DNA of 64,000 nucleotides from an uncultured Clostridia bacterium (GTDB taxonomy: Bacteria > Bacillota > Clostridia > Christensenellales > UBA1242): positions 92,977 to 156,976 of the forward strand of contig CAKVNM010000001.1 in assembly GCA_934777505.1 (NCBI GenBank), written 5' to 3'. A program made the position numbers and the translations under genes. Position 1 is the first letter of the stretch. The number at the start of each line of letters is the position of its first letter. The notes under the pieces were generated by a model. The model searched no databases. It had not been told where the DNA came from and worked only from the letters and a program-made list of their open reading frames with translations. This document shows positions 43,180-61,430 of the stretch, piece by piece.

Positions 43180-43295
43180 CATGCTTGCATAATATTATTT
43201 TATGGGGCATTTGATTGCCTTTTTGTATGCAATGCATATAAATTCAAGCCAAAATAAATATAAATTCATAACTATTTATATTTATGAAAAATTTG

Positions 43296-43311
43296 TTGCA
43301 TAAATATGCAA
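43296..43311. promoter_or_regulatory. ARG-box-like operator TTGCATAAATATGCAA
   Basis: TGCAT-N4-ATGCA has the same 5-4-5 geometry as the ARG box TGAAT-N4-ATTCA. It abuts the -35 of the argR promoter. Confidence 0.55.
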
Positions 43312-43318
43312 AAAGTCC

Positions 43319-43347
43319 TTGCATAATTATAAAATGTATTGTATAAT
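43319..43347 (+). promoter_or_regulatory. Sigma-A-type promoter of argR
   Basis: TTGCAT, 17 nt, TATAAT. Confidence 0.6.
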
Positions 43348-43361
43348 TATTTCGCAATCGA

Positions 43362-43389
43362 TGAATAAATATGAATGCATATTTATGCA
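43362..43389. promoter_or_regulatory. Tandem ARG boxes TGAATAAATATGAA + TGCATATTTATGCA in the argR leader
   Basis: Two contiguous 14-bp boxes downstream of the -10. The arrangement is typical of ArgR/AhrC operators. Confidence 0.55.
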
Positions 43390-43432
43390 AAGTGGCTACA
43401 ATGCCCGAAAATACGGAGGATTTTAAGATTTT

Positions 43433-43882
43433 ATGGCAAGGACAGCAAGACAAAATAAGATACTAGAAATCATTAAAAGTCAAGAAATTGAAACACAAGA
43501 CGAACTTGTTAATGCCTTGCGTGCTTTGAATTTTGATATCACCCAAGCAACAATTTCAAGAGATATCAAAGAACTTGGACTCATCAAAATCATGAGCGAC
43601 AGCAAAAAATACAAATATGCCTATGTCGACTCGTCCGAACAACAGATGTCCACAAAATATCTTGGAATTTTCAAAGAAAGCATTATCAGTATCAAGCCAA
43701 TACTCAATCAAGTTATTATCAAGACTCTAAAAGGCGTTTCAAGTGCAATCAGCAGTTTGATTGATAAAATGGGAATCAAACAAGTTCTTGGTTCGGTTTA
43801 TGGGGACGAAACTGTTTTGGTTATTTGCGAAAACGGTGACGATGCAAACTTTGTTAGCGAAAAAATTGGAGAGATGATTTAA
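43433..43882 (+). CDS. argR: Arginine repressor ArgR/AhrC
   Basis: RQNKILEIIKSQEIETQDELV...TQATISRDIKELGL wHTH and a C-terminal oligomerisation domain. Confidence 0.93.
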   Translation: MARTARQNKILEIIKSQEIETQDELVNALRALNFDITQATISRDIKELGLIKIMSDSKKYKYAYVDSSEQQMSTKYLGIFKESIISIKPILNQVIIKTLKGVSSAISSLIDKMGIKQVLGSVYGDETVLVICENGDDANFVSEKIGEMI

Positions 43883-43955: not shown

Positions 43956-45641
43956 ATGTTAAACACTTTAAAGATAAAAAACATTGCATTAATCGAAAAT
44001 TTAACTATTGAGTTTGATAAAGGACTCAATGTTTTGACGGGCGAAACTGGTGCAGGTAAATCAATTATTATTGATTCGCTTAACTTTGTTTTGGGTGCTA
44101 GAACCGATAGAACGCTAATTCGCAGTGGCGAGAGCAACGCCCGAGTTGACGCAGTTTTCACAGTTGACAACAACACTGCGGTTGAAGAATTTTTTAAGGC
44201 TAACGATTTTGATTATGATGGTGAAATTTTGATTTCAAGAAGTATGAACACAGACGGAAAATCAAACATCTGGCTCAACGGCAACCCTATAACCGCTGGA
44301 ATGTTGAAAGAATTAACTTCCAACTTGGTTGATATCTATGGTCAACAAGAGCAAGTTAGTCTGCTTTCAAACAGCAAGCAACTGCAATTATTAGACAACT
44401 TTTGCGGTAAGGATTTAAAGAAACTTCAAGCAGAGTATTTGGAAAAATATAGCCAAATCAAAAAAATCAACAAGTCACTTCAAGAACTTGGTGGAGATAG
44501 CCAAATGGTGGAGCGAGAAAAAGACTATCTTTCTTTTGTTATTAACGAAATCGAAAGCCAAAATCTTAGCGAAGACGAAGAAAACGATTTAAAAGAGAAA
44601 GTCCATTTATTTTCCAATATTGAAAAAATTATGAGCGGAGCAAATATGACTGCAAACGCACTAAGCAGTGCCGAGCAGTATATAAATCAGGCAATTCCCA
44701 GCATTTCAACAATCACTGCGTTTGATAATAGTATGGAAAACTTATATGAACGATTAAAGTCGCAAAAAATTGAACTTGACGACATAACAGAAACAATCAA
44801 CGAATATCTCGAAAATTTGGATTTTAGCGAAACAGAGTTTGACAAGTTGGACGCAAGGCTCGATACTTACAAGAGTCTTCAAAAGAAATATGGCGGAACA
44901 ACCGAGAATGTACTACAATTCCTTAATGAATCCAAGACTAAACTTGATAGGTTAGTCAACAGCGAGCAGTATATTTTAAAGTTGCAGGACGAAAAAGTCA
45001 GCGCTCTAAAATCTGCACTTGATTTAGCAAAACAAATCAATAATATAAGACAAAAAACAGCGCAAGAATTGCAAGAAAAACTAAAACAAAATTTGGTATG
45101 TCTTGGTATGCCAAGTGCAACAATATATTTTGATTTTAACAACATGGACTACACTGAAGACAATCTAGCTTCAACTGGTGTTGGTGGTGTTCAAATAATG
45201 TTTAGCGCCAACTTGGGACAGCAGGCAAAATTGCTCAGCAAGGTTGCCAGTGGCGGAGAAATGTCTAGAGTTATGCTAGCTATCAAGTCGGTTTTGGCGG
45301 AAAGCGACAACATATCAACCATGATTTTTGATGAAATCGACAGCGGAATTAGCGGTCAAATTGCACAAGCAGTCAGTGAAAAAATTGCTCAAATTTCAAG
45401 ACATCATCAGGTGCTTGTAATAACCCACACAATTCAAATTGCTTCCATGGCAGACACTCACTTTAAAGTTAGAAAATTTGAACAAGACGGAAAAACCGTC
45501 AGCTATGTTGAGCAACTCGACGAAAATAGTAGAGTTGACGAAATTGCTAGATTTATCTCAGCGGACGCAAGTTCAACACTTGCAAAACAAAGTGCAGTAG
45601 AGATAATTAAAAAACAAGACTTGTTCAAGCAAAAACTTTAA
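43956..45641 (+). CDS. recN: DNA repair protein RecN
   Basis: MLNTLKIKNIALIE..., Walker A GETGAGKS and the SMC-like signature SGGEMSR. Confidence 0.95.
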   Translation: MLNTLKIKNIALIENLTIEFDKGLNVLTGETGAGKSIIIDSLNFVLGARTDRTLIRSGESNARVDAVFTVDNNTAVEEFFKANDFDYDGEILISRSMNTDGKSNIWLNGNPITAGMLKELTSNLVDIYGQQEQVSLLSNSKQLQLLDNFCGKDLKKLQAEYLEKYSQIKKINKSLQELGGDSQMVEREKDYLSFVINEIESQNLSEDEENDLKEKVHLFSNIEKIMSGANMTANALSSAEQYINQAIPSISTITAFDNSMENLYERLKSQKIELDDITETINEYLENLDFSETEFDKLDARLDTYKSLQKKYGGTTENVLQFLNESKTKLDRLVNSEQYILKLQDEKVSALKSALDLAKQINNIRQKTAQELQEKLKQNLVCLGMPSATIYFDFNNMDYTEDNLASTGVGGVQIMFSANLGQQAKLLSKVASGGEMSRVMLAIKSVLAESDNISTMIFDEIDSGISGQIAQAVSEKIAQISRHHQVLVITHTIQIASMADTHFKVRKFEQDGKTVSYVEQLDENSRVDEIARFISADASSTLAKQSAVEIIKKQDLFKQKL

Positions 45642-55213: not shown

Positions 55214-55580
55214 CACCGAGCATCCAATCAACAAAATTTTGGAAGAATCATTAAGCAAAATCAAAACAATTATTGATGTCGACACGGTTGTTGGCTCGCC
55301 ACTAACAAGTCCTGATGGTCTCACGATTATTCCAATCACAAAAGTGAGCGTTGGATTTGTTGCGGGTGGTGGCGAATATTCGCAAAATATTCCAAAGAAA
55401 AAACAAAAGGATTCATACCCTTTTGCTGGTGGTTCTGGTGCTGGATTTAATATCAATCCAATAGGATTTTTGGTGGAAAAAAACGGGGTTTTAAAACTCA
55501 TCACTGTTGACAACAAAAGTTCGTTTGAAAACTTGATGGAAATCATGTCAAATCTAACAAAAAAGATTGCTGACAAATAA
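55206..55580 (+). CDS. ytfJ: Sporulation protein YtfJ/GerW family
   Basis: VVGSPLTSPDGLTIIPITKVSVGFVAGGGEY...AGGSGAG pattern typical of YtfJ. Confidence 0.85.
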   Translation: MNNTEHPINKILEESLSKIKTIIDVDTVVGSPLTSPDGLTIIPITKVSVGFVAGGGEYSQNIPKKKQKDSYPFAGGSGAGFNINPIGFLVEKNGVLKLITVDNKSSFENLMEIMSNLTKKIADK

Positions 55581-57520: not shown

Positions 57521-58144
57521 TTATCTCATTTTTCTAATAAGTCCAACAACTTTGCCTAGGATTATAACCGAGTTGGTGTAGATAGGACTCATGTTGTCGT
57601 TTTCTGGTTGAAGTCTAAATCTTCCAGTTTCTCTATAAAATCTCTTAACCGTTGCGTGATAGTCAATCATAGCCACAACAATCTCGCCGTTTTCGGCAGT
57701 TGCTTGCTTGTGAACAACAATATAGTCGCCCGAATTAATGCCCGCATTTATCATACTTTCGCCTTCGGCTTGAAGCATGAAAAGGTCTTGCGAATTGAAC
57801 ATATTTTCTGGAAAGGTGTAGATACTTTCATAGTTTTCGACAGCCAAAATAGGTGTACCGCAAGTTACAGTACCAACAAGTGGTATTTGAATCATACGCT
57901 GACTTTCGGCTTCCTTGGCCTTTTTTAGTTCGGTTAGTTCAAACGCTCTTGCTTTGCTGGTTTCGCCTTTTTTAATAACGCCACGCTTTTGCAAAATATC
58001 AAGGTAATAACTAATAGTCGAAGTGCTTTTTATGCCCAAAAAGTTTGCCATTTCTCTAACACTTGGAAGATAGTTGTTGTCGTTTGAATACTCGCACAAG
58101 TAATCTGTCAATCTTTCCAAATTTCTTTCAATTTTTTTCATCAA
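57521..58144 (-). CDS. lexA: LexA repressor
   Basis: wHTH N-terminus, cleavage-site region, and an S24 peptidase domain (GESM...VKRF). Confidence 0.95.
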   Translation of the reverse strand: MMKKIERNLERLTDYLCEYSNDNNYLPSVREMANFLGIKSTSTISYYLDILQKRGVIKKGETSKARAFELTELKKAKEAESQRMIQIPLVGTVTCGTPILAVENYESIYTFPENMFNSQDLFMLQAEGESMINAGINSGDYIVVHKQATAENGEIVVAMIDYHATVKRFYRETGRFRLQPENDNMSPIYTNSVIILGKVVGLIRKMR

Positions 58145-58174: not shown

Positions 58175-58214
58175 ACTATATCACACAAAAATCATCTTGT
58201 CAAACATTTGTTCT
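58175..58214 (-). promoter_or_regulatory. lexA promoter with an overlapping LexA (Cheo-type) box
   Basis: The minus strand reads AGAACAAATGTTTGACA, 17 nt, TATAGT. The box occupies 58201-58214. Confidence 0.65.
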
Positions 58215-58221
58215 AAATTTT

Positions 58222-59265
58222 TTATTTATCTCTAAGTTTAACTTTTGTTGACGCCTGTCTGCGAATATCATCACTGATTTGAGCGTAGTACTTTTTGGTC
58301 GTGTTGACATCTTTATGACCAAGAACGCTTGCAACAACATAGATATCTCCGGTTTCTCTGTAAAGATTTGTGCCATAAGTAGAACGAAGTTTATGCGGAG
58401 TAATTTTTTTGAGTGGAATCACGCCACTTGTATATTTTTTAACCAATTTTTCAACGGCCCGTGTTGTAATTCGCTTTTTTTGCATGGAAAGGAAAAAAGC
58501 AGTTTCATTTTCGCTCGCAATCGCATTTCTAACATTAAGATAGTCAAGCAAAGCGTCCTTAACTTCGTTGGAAAAATACAAAATCACACGACTTCCACCT
58601 TTGCGGGTGATAGTGAACGCATTTTGGTCAAAATCAATATCTTTCACATCAATTCCCACAAGTTCGCTAATACGAATGCCTGTGCCTAAAAATAGGCTCA
58701 TAATAGCAAAATCTCTGGCTTCGTTAACCTTGTGATATTTCTTTTCACTAGGGGAGAGATTATCGCCATTTTCGACCGCATCAAGCAGTTTTACAACTTC
58801 TTCGGGTTCAAGTTTTATGATTTCCTTTTCTCTTAGTTTTGGACTGTCTAGTTTGTCGCCAATATTTTGCTCAATTTTGCCTTTACGATAAAAATATCTT
58901 AGCATTGTTTTAACGCTGGAAAACTTACGAGCCTTGGTCTTGGTGCTGTTAACATAAATTTTATCGTTGTTTTCGTAGGAACTAAGATATGACATATATT
59001 TTTCAATGTGAGTTTCGGTCACACGATTTAAATCCGCAAAAGTAAGTTCCTGCGGAGTTTTGCTAGAAAAAGAGTAGATTTGAGTGGTCAAAAAAGTGAA
59101 AAATCGCTTCAAATCTTGGGCATATCCAAGACGAGTTAGCGGAGTTGTTCTGGACTCAATTCCAAGAAAAAACTCTTCGCAAAAAATTGGGAGTTCCTTT
59201 AAAATTTCTCTTATTTGTTGTTCGTTTTTTACATTTCGTTGTTGAAAATAATCTAATTTTTCCAT
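58222..59265 (-). CDS. Tyrosine recombinase, XerS/XerC-like
   Basis: Catalytic pattern GTGIRISEL (R), HKLRST (H-x-x-R), LGH and KYY (Tyr). The SAM-like N-terminal domain resembles single-recombinase Xer proteins. Confidence 0.85.
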   Translation of the reverse strand: MEKLDYFQQRNVKNEQQIREILKELPIFCEEFFLGIESRTTPLTRLGYAQDLKRFFTFLTTQIYSFSSKTPQELTFADLNRVTETHIEKYMSYLSSYENNDKIYVNSTKTKARKFSSVKTMLRYFYRKGKIEQNIGDKLDSPKLREKEIIKLEPEEVVKLLDAVENGDNLSPSEKKYHKVNEARDFAIMSLFLGTGIRISELVGIDVKDIDFDQNAFTITRKGGSRVILYFSNEVKDALLDYLNVRNAIASENETAFFLSMQKKRITTRAVEKLVKKYTSGVIPLKKITPHKLRSTYGTNLYRETGDIYVVASVLGHKDVNTTKKYYAQISDDIRRQASTKVKLRDK

Positions 59266-59300
59266 ACAAGTATTTTATCAAATTTTATAGTAAATTTCAA
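59266..59300 (-). promoter_or_regulatory. Promoter giving a leaderless recombinase mRNA
   Basis: The minus strand reads TTGAAA (59300-59295), 17 nt, TAAAAT (59277-59272), 6 nt, then ATG at 59265. No SD. Confidence 0.5.
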
Positions 59301-59317
59301 GTATTTTGCGAATAGTT
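59301..59317. repeat. Partial dif-like site: 17-bp copy GTATTTTGCGAATAGTT
   Basis: Identical to 60385-60401. It abuts the -35 of the recombinase promoter. Confidence 0.85.
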
Positions 59318-59343
59318 AAAAATATTTTTTAAACCCGTTTTGT

Positions 59344-59378
59344 TTGGTTATATTTGTAATATGATATATAATAAAAGT
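59344..59378 (+). promoter_or_regulatory. Promoter giving a leaderless mRNA for the 305-aa gene
   Basis: TTGGTT, 17 nt, TATAAT (59367-59372), 6 nt, then ATG at 59379. Confidence 0.5.
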
Positions 59379-60293
59379 ATGAACGAAGAAAAATTAAATC
59401 TTGTGCTAGATATTTTAAACGAAAAAACTCAGCAAAATTTTACTATTCAAAAAAACGCTTATGAGTCACTTTATGAAAACTTGCAAGCAATTATTGACAC
59501 TAATTTTGTTGATGTTCAAAACAAACTTTTTGTGTTGCCATGCGGAGATTATTTTACGCACACATTTTACGACAATTCGATTGTTGATTTTTATGTGATA
59601 TTCAAAACAAACAAAGACGAAATCGACTTTTCGATAGTTGACCAAAAAATCACAAAAAAGGGCAAAAAGGCTAATACTTATAGCCAGATTATGAACAGAC
59701 CTATGGTTTCAGGCTCTTTGCAAGCCGAAGATATCGCAAAAAGGCTTAGTGACCAAATTTTAGGTACTATAAAAACCTTGTCGATATTCCAAAAACGCAA
59801 CCAAATTATGCTAAGACTCAATGGCGATGTTATTGCCAGAATAACCGTTTGTTACGATTTTAGCGAGCCAAACGGCGAACTAACTTGCCGAAATGTTAAC
59901 ATTTGGAAGCAAATCAATCCCGTAAAATATCTTGAAAAAATCGACAAAAAACGCCTTGAAACCGACAATAATTTTGAACTTATTGCAAGACTTTTCAAAG
60001 CGCTCGAAATGGAACTTGTTTTAAACCAAGAATCGAACATTATCATTGGCAAAAATTACTTTGTTGAAAACTTGCTTTTTAATGTTCCAAGTGAACTTTT
60101 TAAAAGCGATTCTGTATACAACACGATATACAAAATTTTGGCATTTTTAAGGTTAAAAGATTACAAAACATTTAGATTGATTGACGAAACCGATTTTATG
60201 TATAAACAAGATTTTTACTCAAAGAACTATGCAAAGCAATTTATTAATAAAATTGAATATGCGTTAGAAAATCTTGACGAATTATTAAAGTAA
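59379..60293 (+). CDS. Hypothetical protein with a nucleotidyltransferase-like (SMODS/CD-NTase-like) pattern and a degenerate catalytic motif
   Basis: PCGDYFTHTFYDNSIVDFYV resembles G[GS]-x10-D-x-D with the first Asp missing. C-terminal YFVENLLFNVPSELF resembles the helical-domain motif of this fold. Family recognition is by eye only. Confidence 0.55.
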   Translation: MNEEKLNLVLDILNEKTQQNFTIQKNAYESLYENLQAIIDTNFVDVQNKLFVLPCGDYFTHTFYDNSIVDFYVIFKTNKDEIDFSIVDQKITKKGKKANTYSQIMNRPMVSGSLQAEDIAKRLSDQILGTIKTLSIFQKRNQIMLRLNGDVIARITVCYDFSEPNGELTCRNVNIWKQINPVKYLEKIDKKRLETDNNFELIARLFKALEMELVLNQESNIIIGKNYFVENLLFNVPSELFKSDSVYNTIYKILAFLRLKDYKTFRLIDETDFMYKQDFYSKNYAKQFINKIEYALENLDELLK

Positions 60294-60371
60294 AAAATCC
60301 AATTCAAATTTTATGCAAAATTATGAAAATTTATAAACATTCGACTTTTCAGGCATTTTCTGTGGGTACAA

Positions 60372-60397
60372 ATTCGTAAAATCTGTATTTTGCGAAT
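60372..60397. other. Palindromic dif-like recombinase core site ATTCGTAAAA-TCTGTA-TTTTGCGAAT
   Basis: 10-bp inverted arms (9/10 match) around a 6-bp centre. The right half plus 4 flanking bp is repeated at 59301-59317. Confidence 0.6.
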
Positions 60398-60441
60398 AGT
60401 TGTAGATACTCAAAATGCATAGTTTTTAATCTACTCCACAC

Positions 60442-60483
60442 AAAAAAAGATAGTATCAGGTTTTCCGTTGCTATCTTTTTTTT
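60442..60483. terminator. Terminator hairpin flanked by A7 and T7
   Basis: Stem AGATAG...CTATCT, extendable with wobble pairs. T7 on the 3' side. Confidence 0.7.
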
Positions 60484-60640
60484 ATTAAATTAAGTAACTG
60501 GCTGACTGGTAGGTAAGTTCACAAAAATTGGTTATAAAATTCAATCTAGTGTTCAACGGAATTAAGAACCAACTTGTTTTGTTATTATATTGATTTTATT
60601 GCGTCAACATAAGGTTTTATGCTTAAAAAGGTTAAGAGTA

Positions 60641-60723: not shown

Positions 60724-61395
60724 TTAACAGTAAAGTTTTATCAAAAATCCCGAGTTTTTTATGAGTGTTTGACATTCTTTGTAGTTTGGCAAATAGCGTT
60801 CCACCAGTTTCCAAAAGTTTTTGCTATGATTTAACTCTCTTGTGTGGCAAAGTTCGTGAATTATAACATAGTCAATTAGGTCTGGCGGAAGCATTAAAAG
60901 TTTAAAATTAAATAATAAATTTTTTTTGTTATCACACATTCCCCACTTGGCTTTGCTTGAAATTATACTTATACTTTTATAACTAAAATTAAATTTGCTT
61001 GCAAGTTTCTCCACCCTTGGCACAATGATATCATCACAAGCATCATAGTAAAATTGTTTTAGTTGACTTTTCATGTTTGCTAGGCTTTTTGTGTGGTTCA
61101 AAATGATTGCTTCTTGCGTCAAATATGGCTTGTCTAAGGACTTTGTCATACAAATTGTGTAGTGTTTGCCAAGAAGTAGCATTTTTTGATAGTTAATTAA
61201 TTCATAATTTTTGGCTAGAATTGTTTTGATTTTGCTTTGGCGTTCTTCTATCCATTTTTGCTTTTTGGTAATAAAAGCAAAAATTTCGTCAAGGCTCATT
61301 TTGTTTGGTGCTTTGACTATTAGGTCGCCTTTTTCGTCTATCATGAGTGACAATGTTCGCCTGTTTGTTCGCTCAATTATTTTTGGTGTTATCAT
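60724..61395 (-). CDS. DUF45 / YgjP-like zinc metallopeptidase-fold protein
   Basis: HELCHTRELNHSKNFW motif. ATG at 61395 is preferred over TTG at 61410 because of the leaderless promoter geometry. Confidence 0.8.
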   Translation of the reverse strand: MITPKIIERTNRRTLSLMIDEKGDLIVKAPNKMSLDEIFAFITKKQKWIEERQSKIKTILAKNYELINYQKMLLLGKHYTICMTKSLDKPYLTQEAIILNHTKSLANMKSQLKQFYYDACDDIIVPRVEKLASKFNFSYKSISIISSKAKWGMCDNKKNLLFNFKLLMLPPDLIDYVIIHELCHTRELNHSKNFWKLVERYLPNYKECQTLIKNSGFLIKLYC

Positions 61396-61430
61396 ATTTT
61401 CATTGTACAACGAAGTGTCTTATTTTTCAA
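61396..61430 (-). promoter_or_regulatory. Promoter giving a leaderless DUF45 mRNA
   Basis: The minus strand reads TTGAAA (61430-61425), 17 nt, TACAAT (61407-61402), 6 nt, then ATG at 61395. Confidence 0.5.

Follow-up and report, generated by a model that had tools for sequence, protein, structure and literature searches.

A probable chromosomal dif site and a promoter half-site at a XerS-like recombinase locus of an uncultured Clostridia bacterium

Introduction

A 64,000-nucleotide stretch from an uncultured Clostridia bacterium (assembly GCA_934777505.1, contig CAKVNM010000001.1, positions 92,977 to 156,976; hereafter the window, whose own coordinates are used throughout) carries a gene for a XerS-like tyrosine recombinase, a palindromic dif-like site, a partial copy of that site at the promoter of the recombinase gene and a single gene between the two copies. 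The question raised by this locus is what such an arrangement represents. A first-pass annotation of the sequence had proposed the chromosomal dif site of a one-recombinase Xer system carrying a single-gene cassette mobilised by Xer recombination or, alternatively, a pair of direct repeats forming an excision switch on the recombinase promoter. The analysis of related genomes favours a different combination, namely the terminus dif locus of a XerS-like recombinase, with a promoter half-site that would serve as an operator and a resident gene of the CD-NTase fold. The probability of this reading, taken as a whole, is estimated at about 0.62.

Results

The inverted repeat described in the first-pass annotation was confirmed. 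It consists of a 10-bp left arm ATTCGTAAAA (60372-60381), a 6-bp centre TCTGTA (60382-60387) and a 10-bp right arm TTTTGCGAAT (60388-60397), with 9/10 pairing. The exact 17-bp repeat GTATTTTGCGAATAGTT was also found where it had been reported, at 59301-59317 and 60385-60401, 1084 bp apart. When up to three mismatches were allowed, the window contained four matches to the 17-mer (0.54 expected), a number that none of the shuffled sequences reached. The recombinase open reading frame (ORF; 58222-59265, minus strand) lies to the left of the segment, a single ORF (59379-60293, plus strand) lies between the repeats, and the left repeat copy adjoins the -35 box TTGAAA (59300-59295, minus strand), all as claimed.

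The palindrome alone is unremarkable: inverted repeats of this 10-6-10 layout with 9/10 pairing or better number 19 in the window (about 5.4 in simulated sequence), and most of them are terminator-like in appearance; its significance therefore rests on conservation in other genomes. Relatives of the recombinase revealed a 34-bp unit of which the window palindrome is the core, with the family consensus AACTATTCGYAAAA-N6-TTTTRCGAATAGTT over more than 119 loci. In the window, this dif-type site spans 60368-60401. Its left arm, ACAAATTCGTAAAA (60368-60381), agrees with the consensus at 11/14 positions, and its right arm, TTTTGCGAATAGTT (60388-60401), at 14/14. The near-perfect dyad symmetry of the arms fits the binding of one recombinase species to both.

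The family was defined by a scan with a 26-bp core pattern, using one genome per species, which returned at least 119 stretches from at least 118 assemblies; the family counts given here hold among the matches listed. The core pattern occurred once per assembly in 117 of 118 and twice in the other. The great majority of the matches came from Clostridia (Christensenella, Lachnospiraceae, Butyrivibrio, Oscillospiraceae and many metagenome-assembled genomes), with one Bacillus and one Alicyclobacillus assembly as named exceptions. A recombinase homologue was present within the same 8-kb block at 71 of the 119 sites. Wherever the locus could be oriented by a homologue of at least 40% identity, the site was upstream of the recombinase gene start (67/67). 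Site and gene start are most often 30-150 bp apart, compared with 1.1 kb in the window, and the interval spans 30 bp to 5.2 kb across the family. In two distant relatives (L004 and L012), the site lies 100-145 bp upstream of the recombinase gene, with no gene between. In two complete genomes whose origins are unplaced, it maps at 2.27 of 2.56 Mb (LT700187.1) and at 2.10 of 2.92 Mb (NZ_CP097810.1).

At a replication terminus, the guanine-cytosine (GC) skew of the deposited strand passes from positive to negative, irrespective of the orientation of the record. This passage was seen across the site in 44 of the 64 loci with at least 1.5 kb on each side, and the reverse in one; in an internal control, in which flanks were cut at their own midpoints, it was seen in 23 of 136. 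The skew was ambiguous for the first eight loci with 5-kb flanks, and clear when pooled over the 64 loci and in one close relative (L158). In the window, 55 consecutive large plus-strand ORFs run up to 57 kb and end at the lexA-xer locus. The skew is uniformly positive over positions 1-57000 (mean +0.10) and the cumulative skew has its maximum at 57613. This part of the window is an unusually clean leading-strand replichore arm.

The close relative L158 was found through P0015, a recombinase variant in the same 90% cluster. It is 97.2% identical to the window, collinear with it, and reaches approximately 9 kb past the site. To the left of the locus L158 has positive skew, over the locus the value is near zero, and for 7 kb to the right it is between -0.05 and -0.14; there, the genes past a padR-ABC operon change strand.

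The recombinase (347 amino acids) matched Pfam Phage_integrase (3.8e-32) and a SAM-like N-terminal domain. The catalytic set R, K, HxxR, H, Y is complete, and the motifs GIRISE, TRKGGS, HKLRS, LGH and KYY are present in the translation. The top NCBIfam model was XerS (NF003462, 191.3 bits), on which residues 13-342 align to model positions 5-356 of 360, followed by the XerA, XerC and XerD models. The score is below the XerS equivalog cut-off of 267 bits. By sequence, the nearest solved structures were XerA and XerD, and XerH was absent from these sequence matches at E ≤ 1e-10. The 31-bp difSL consensus is not matched by the window site, which has a similar arm composition and a different sequence and geometry. 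As the protein falls below the XerS cut-off and the site is unlike difSL in sequence and geometry, the enzyme is termed XerS-like and not XerS. Within the 64-kb window, no second tyrosine recombinase was found.

The proposal of a chromosomal dif site is supported by the single-copy site, the linkage to the recombinase, the skew switch, the XerS model as best match and the position at the end of the plus-strand run. These comparisons make it very probable that 60368-60401 is the chromosomal dif of a XerS-like system with a single recombinase.

The partial copy at 59301-59317 (plus strand) consists of the 14-bp arm TTTTGCGAATAGTT at 59304-59317 and GTA at 59301-59303. It borders the predicted recombinase promoter (59272-59300, minus strand), which has the -35 box named above, a 17-nt spacer and a TG-extended -10 box TAAAAT (59277-59272). 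On the recombinase coding strand the sequence reads AACTATTCGCAAAA-TAC-TTGAAA-N17-TGaTAAAAT-acttgt-ATG. The promoter scored 10/12 plus TG in a promoter scan, and the ATG follows the -10 box by 6 nt, the same spacing as in relatives. So short a distance implies a leaderless mRNA. Both divergent genes have this 6-nt spacing (at 59367-59381 and 59263-59280) and lack a Shine-Dalgarno sequence, and the spacing is kept in relatives; their sequences suggest that the recombinase and CD-NTase-like mRNAs are leaderless.

The first-pass annotation had noted that the identity of the two copies begins inside the centre, where strand exchange would occur. This proved an unstable feature; the 14-bp arm is the conserved unit and the flanking GTA varies. 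In L001 the full site has the centre CTCGCA, yet the partial copy still has GTA; in L033 and L153 the centre is TCTGTA, but the partial copies have GAA and TGA, respectively. Because the GTA differs between partial copy and full site in these genomes, it is not tied to the dif centre.

Nine genomes form the clade set of the window (the window, L158, L156, L153, L155, L001, L002, L003 and L033). All nine have the order recombinase gene, partial copy, CD-NTase-like gene, with the full site past the gene. In their alignment, the 14-bp arm is invariant except for one mismatch in L002, and the adjoining intergenic DNA diverges. When a second arm was sought to the left of the partial copy, allowing a 6-bp or 8-bp centre, none was conserved in the nine genomes.

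Outside this clade, the arm was also found at the recombinase promoter. In L112, L141, L058, L052 and L048, CTATTCGTAAAA adjoins TTGACA-N17-TATAAT with the ATG approximately 6 nt on, and the full site lies 105-242 bp from the gene start without an intervening gene. L123 has the same arm-promoter layout with three extra bases ahead of the -35 box, and four loci (L076, L080, L145 and L092) have a promoter arm with one mismatch. In L117, L144 and L101 the arm stands in place of the -35 box with its orientation reversed, a geometry shared by the proximal arm of the full site in L095; in L088, the arm lies downstream of the -10 box. Over 67 loci (502 kb), 20 of the 37 extra arms with at most one mismatch fell within 100 bp upstream of the recombinase start, an approximately 90-fold enrichment.

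The presence of the half-site at the promoter in insert-free relatives identifies it as a promoter feature that is independent of any insertion, and the varied positions of the arm, all overlapping the promoter, fit repression by occlusion. The conserved layout indicates that the partial copy is probably an autoregulatory operator for one recombinase monomer. In 2007, Le Bourgeois et al. (PMC1914069) proposed that xerS is autoregulated by way of difSL at its promoter.

The bracketed gene (59379-60293, plus strand; 304 amino acids) has its own TATAAT box at 59367-59372, 6 nt before the ATG. The protein has no Pfam match in the local library, and the precomputed annotation assigns it PF26305 (CD_NTase_C). 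Matches to oligonucleotide-cyclase models (PADLOC, 4e-11) are weak and cover the C-terminal half only. The AlphaFold model has a predicted local distance difference test (pLDDT) score of 84, and its top Foldseek matches are CdnE structures over the whole chain (E 1e-11; template modelling score 0.65-0.69). As modelled, the protein has a CD-NTase (CdnE-like) fold. The family alignment contains G56-D57, h-x-[D/E] where DxD is expected and an invariant C-Y-D160 (residues 56-70 and 158-160). Placed against LpCdnE, GS...DxD reads GD...h-x-[D/E], in a below-threshold HMMER stretch of approximately 1 bit that is the sole alignment into the N-terminal half. The predicted active site appears atypical, with the first acidic residue missing.

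The family comprises 12 clusters at 90% identity among 5.8 billion proteins; at the 50%-identity level, 1.84 billion proteins yielded 179 representatives with E ≤ 1e-3, a number that fell to 10 when E ≤ 1e-30 was required. Peptide patterns returned no genomic relatives, and the homologues came from the protein database. All homologues with a context that was examined (approximately 20 loci, including P0002, P0003, P0009 and P0012) lie between the recombinase gene and dif. The order lexA, recombinase gene, CD-NTase-like gene, dif, ygjP, padR is found in L001-L003, L033, L153, L155 and L158, and as far as the contig ends in L156 and L157. In L060, L070, L091, L103, L113, L114, L139 and L150 this position is taken by a more distant homologue, and in L073, L127, L142 and L098 the homologue comes after a gene reading as serS.

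The carriers form essentially one clade plus an adjacent one in the recombinase tree, and the CD-NTase-like gene loses identity to the window copy in parallel with the recombinase, LexA and YgjP (Spearman 0.88). It is the fastest-evolving gene of the locus, with identities of 98%, ~55%, ~43% and ~25% as the neighbours diverge. No effector or other gene of a cyclic-oligonucleotide-based antiphage signalling system (CBASS) is adjacent; the gene is bordered by the recombinase gene on one side and by dif and ygjP on the other, and does not belong to a CBASS operon.

The first-pass annotation had also suggested a comparison of related genomes for alleles lacking the segment. The gene was present in all of the relatives examined for it, both the close ones and those at a moderate distance. 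No empty site was found in L158 or in four more contigs with the P0015 allele (three with the same neighbours; the other, L159, of 1.3 kb), and none in eight species of the clade or approximately 12 more distant carriers, in a small sampling of strains. The bracketed gene is probably lineage-specific, long fixed here, vertically inherited and not currently mobile.

Ordinary genes occupy the recombinase-dif interval in other lineages, among them, as identified by sequence reading, those for a PP-loop ATPase, a permease and a PadR-like protein. A serS-like gene, also identified by reading, lies in it in L073, L127, L142, L098, L101 and L117, so the interval can also capture core genes. Its content varies, yet it does not amount to an array of cassettes. 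In one locus (L115; recombinase start taken as 0), full dif-like sites lie at +170 and +2036, one reading ATTCGTAAAG-CAAATA-TTTTACGAAT and the other a strict-pattern site with the centre GGCAAC, with approximately 1.85 kb of several small ORFs between. This is the only one of the 67 loci with an architecture resembling dif modules or the elements that exploit Xer recombination (IMEX).

The same dif-type site was present in 21 IMG/VR viral contigs (L161-L181), with a recombinase alongside in only two. The viral ORF scan covered two contigs, both without a recombinase homologue: in L175 (3132-3157) the site lies between a primase gene and terminase/portal genes, and in L177 (5447-5472) a short way upstream of the terminase. 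Such tailed phages or phage-plasmids may rely on the Xer recombinase of their host to resolve dimers or to integrate at dif.

Discussion

The system described here resembles XerS/difSL of Streptococcus and Lactococcus (PMC1914069, PMC2965235) in its single tyrosine recombinase of ~350 amino acids, encoded by a gene linked to the terminus site, in A/T-rich arms of the type TTCnnAAAA / TTTTnnGAA, and in having the site or a part of it at the recombinase promoter. It differs in several respects. The site here is 34 bp long with symmetric 14-bp arms and a 6-bp centre, whereas difSL is 31 bp long and asymmetric; the difSL central region is 6-8 bp according to the original paper (PMC1914069) and 11 bp according to a later review, which quotes the arms as TTTCCGAAAA and TTTTCTTGAAA (PMC5357621). 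The hosts here are Clostridia (Christensenellales, Lachnospiraceae, Oscillospiraceae and others). Many members have a promoter half-site separate from a full dif that lies 60 bp to several kb off, and in the window a gene lies between the two.

The XerH/difH system of Helicobacter and Campylobacter shares the single recombinase and the terminus location, and belongs to another phylum. The difH site is nearly palindromic, with an inner ...GAAAA-N6-TTTTC... layout. To our knowledge, descriptions of xerH do not usually include a half-site at its promoter.

By analogy with these two systems, two recombinase dimers would synapse sister copies of 60368-60401 and resolve chromosome dimers. A recombinase monomer on the half-site beside the -35 box would, most likely, repress its own promoter, so that the enzyme sets its own level. 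Occupancy of the half-site might also act on the divergent promoter of the neighbouring gene.

Several observations weigh against this reading. No recombinase homologue was found in the 8-kb block at 48 of the 119 sites, so the linkage of recombinase and site is not universal. The window stops 3.6 kb beyond the site, the plus-strand padR-ABC operon holds the skew positive just to the right of dif (L153 and L033), and within the clade of the window the switch from positive to negative is visible only in the long flank of L158. As for the operator, the half-site in the window lies upstream of the -35 box, where activators also bind, so that activation in place of repression is conceivable. The GTA beside the arm recurs in several lineages (the window clade, L060, L114, L088 and L091) and might be left over from a dif centre.

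The alternative that survives best, though we regard it as unlikely, is that the half-site has an accessory or architectural role, in which a bound monomer loops to dif or stores recombinase and so sets the timing or direction of recombination. Accessory sequences govern Xer recombination at cer and psi, which provides a precedent. The half-site is a direct repeat of one dif arm, always on the dif side and near it (60-100 bp from dif in L112, L141, L058 and L052). Against this, the conserved position is that relative to the -35 box, the -10 box and the ATG, while the distance to dif ranges from ~60 bp to more than 1 kb (~2.7 kb in L101), and the orientation of the half-site flips between lineages.

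The first-pass annotation had taken the 1.08-kb segment for a Xer-exploiting element of the IMEX or pdif kind, integrated at dif and flanked by one good and one degenerate copy. Several features of the locus recall such elements, which include CTX-phi, VGJ-phi, TLC-phi, the gonococcal genetic island and the pdif modules of Acinetobacter: a short piece of DNA has dif on one side and a dif-related repeat on the other, here as direct repeats of an arm plus 3 bp, and the single gene between them has its own promoter, a terminator-like hairpin, a defence-type (CD-NTase) fold and fast evolution. The variable content of the recombinase-dif interval, the two full sites of L115 and the occurrence of the site type on phage contigs point the same way. 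However, the proximal repeat is one-armed, without a second arm in 9/9 genomes, and a half-site is also present at the promoter in genomes without an insert, so it predates the insert or is independent of it. The half-site has the orientation of the dif-distal arm, running into the -35 box, where an integration junction should leave the promoter-proximal arm. No empty site was seen in the strain, the four P0015 contigs, the eight species or the distant carriers; the gene co-diverges with its neighbours, with all of the contexts examined being the same locus; and other lineages have housekeeping genes such as serS in the interval. Neither a pair of two-armed sites, nor empty-site polymorphism, nor horizontal spread of the cargo, as would mark an IMEX, was found. 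A mobile cassette is therefore improbable as a description of the present locus, although the insertion may have had an ancient Xer-mediated origin.

Similarly improbable is a joint action of half-site and dif on the CD-NTase-like gene, through looping or occasional excision, or a role of the altered protein as an accessory factor in dimer resolution. The latter would explain why all of the examined homologues lie between the recombinase gene and dif, and the former, if true, would couple the expression of an immune-type nucleotide-signalling gene to the Xer machinery or to the state of chromosome segregation.

The CBASS CdnE proteins (clade E CD-NTases, such as PDB 6e0k and 7x4t) share the whole-protein fold and sequence similarity in the C-terminal helical domain; they differ from the protein described here, which belongs to a tiny family and lacks an adjacent effector or CBASS gene.

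The second suggestion of the first-pass annotation, a reversible excision switch in which the two direct repeats recombine to remove the gene and rewire the recombinase promoter, is very improbable. It predicts a 1084-bp circle (junction AAAATCTGTATTTTGCGAATAGTTAAAAATA) and the deletion junction CAAGTATTTTGCGAATAGTTGTAGATAC. The 17-bp direct repeat does adjoin the -35 box, and sites with one poor arm are sometimes used, as in TLC-phi attP (PMC5357621). All of the objections to a cassette apply here too. In addition, the one-armed half-site lacks room for the two monomers needed for both strand exchanges, and in L001, L033 and L153 the two copies differ in the GTA, the presumed crossover homology. 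No deletion alleles were found in the relatives examined; the metagenome contigs scanned for CAAGTATTTTGCGAATAGTT gave one unrelated chance match, in a collection that does not contain this clade and carries no weight either way. The 19 comparable inverted repeats of the window might speak for a coincidence, in which an AT-rich 17-mer recurs by chance next to a commonplace terminator-like palindrome. This can be dismissed, as exact 17-mers are unexpected and many genomes keep both elements, in sequence as in position.

Under the preferred reading of a terminus dif locus with an operator half-site, the locus and its at least 119 relatives define a candidate one-recombinase Xer system. The open-access literature, an incomplete collection, yielded no account of Clostridia with a XerS-like system and a dif belonging to it, and the module is apparently undescribed; the same search gave no earlier description of chromosome-dimer resolution in uncultured gut and rumen Clostridia. 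The 34-bp symmetric site would mark the terminus in fragmented metagenome-assembled genomes and, since it is carried by tailed-phage contigs, provides a convenient marker for candidate exploiters of this recombinase. The promoter half-sites lend comparative support to the older proposal that XerS-type recombinases regulate themselves through their own site. They also indicate that a direct repeat of half a core site beside a recombinase gene need not signal a mobile cassette.

Additional Observations

The gene to the right of dif, which converges on it, encodes a YgjP-like metallopeptidase (60724-61410, minus strand; Pfam YgjP-like, 9e-54), and ygjP is also beside dif in relatives without the CD-NTase-like gene (L041, L072 and L084). 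A hairpin GTAGAT...ATCTAC lies immediately past dif, followed by a two-way terminator-like stem with T and A runs (~60451-60485; region 60402-60490). If the weak hairpin upstream of dif fails to terminate, the transcript of the CD-NTase-like gene would run through dif. A search of Rfam over 57.4-61.6 kb gave no RNA family, save one match far below threshold.

On the other side, lexA (57521-58144, minus strand; Pfam LexA_DNA_bind plus Peptidase_S24) lies 3' of the recombinase gene and is its neighbour in many relatives. In the promoter scan, lexA has its own promoter, TTGACA-17-TATAGT, separate from that of the recombinase. A Cheo-type LexA box, AGAACAAATGTTTG (minus strand; 58201-58214, region 58198-58214), overlaps the lexA -35 box and sits between the recombinase stop codon and lexA.

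Two arm-like 14-mers, TTTTGCGAAGAGTT (59171-59184, minus strand) and TTTTGCGAATATTC (55374-55387, minus strand), were considered as further sites and rejected, as they sit in conserved coding sequence. The first corresponds to the FCEEF codons of the recombinase and the second lies inside ytfJ; both are conserved in L002, L003 and L033, and they are probably by-products of coding constraint. The first also pairs loosely, in inverted orientation, with the promoter half-site ~120 bp off.

Further upstream, four clustered AT-rich palindromes resembling TGCATAAATATGCA occur at 43230-43390, ahead of an ORF (43433-43882) that reads as ArgR. The palindromes resemble ARG boxes, which would represent ordinary autoregulation. 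The next ORF considered (43956-45641) is assumed to be recN, on position and size only.

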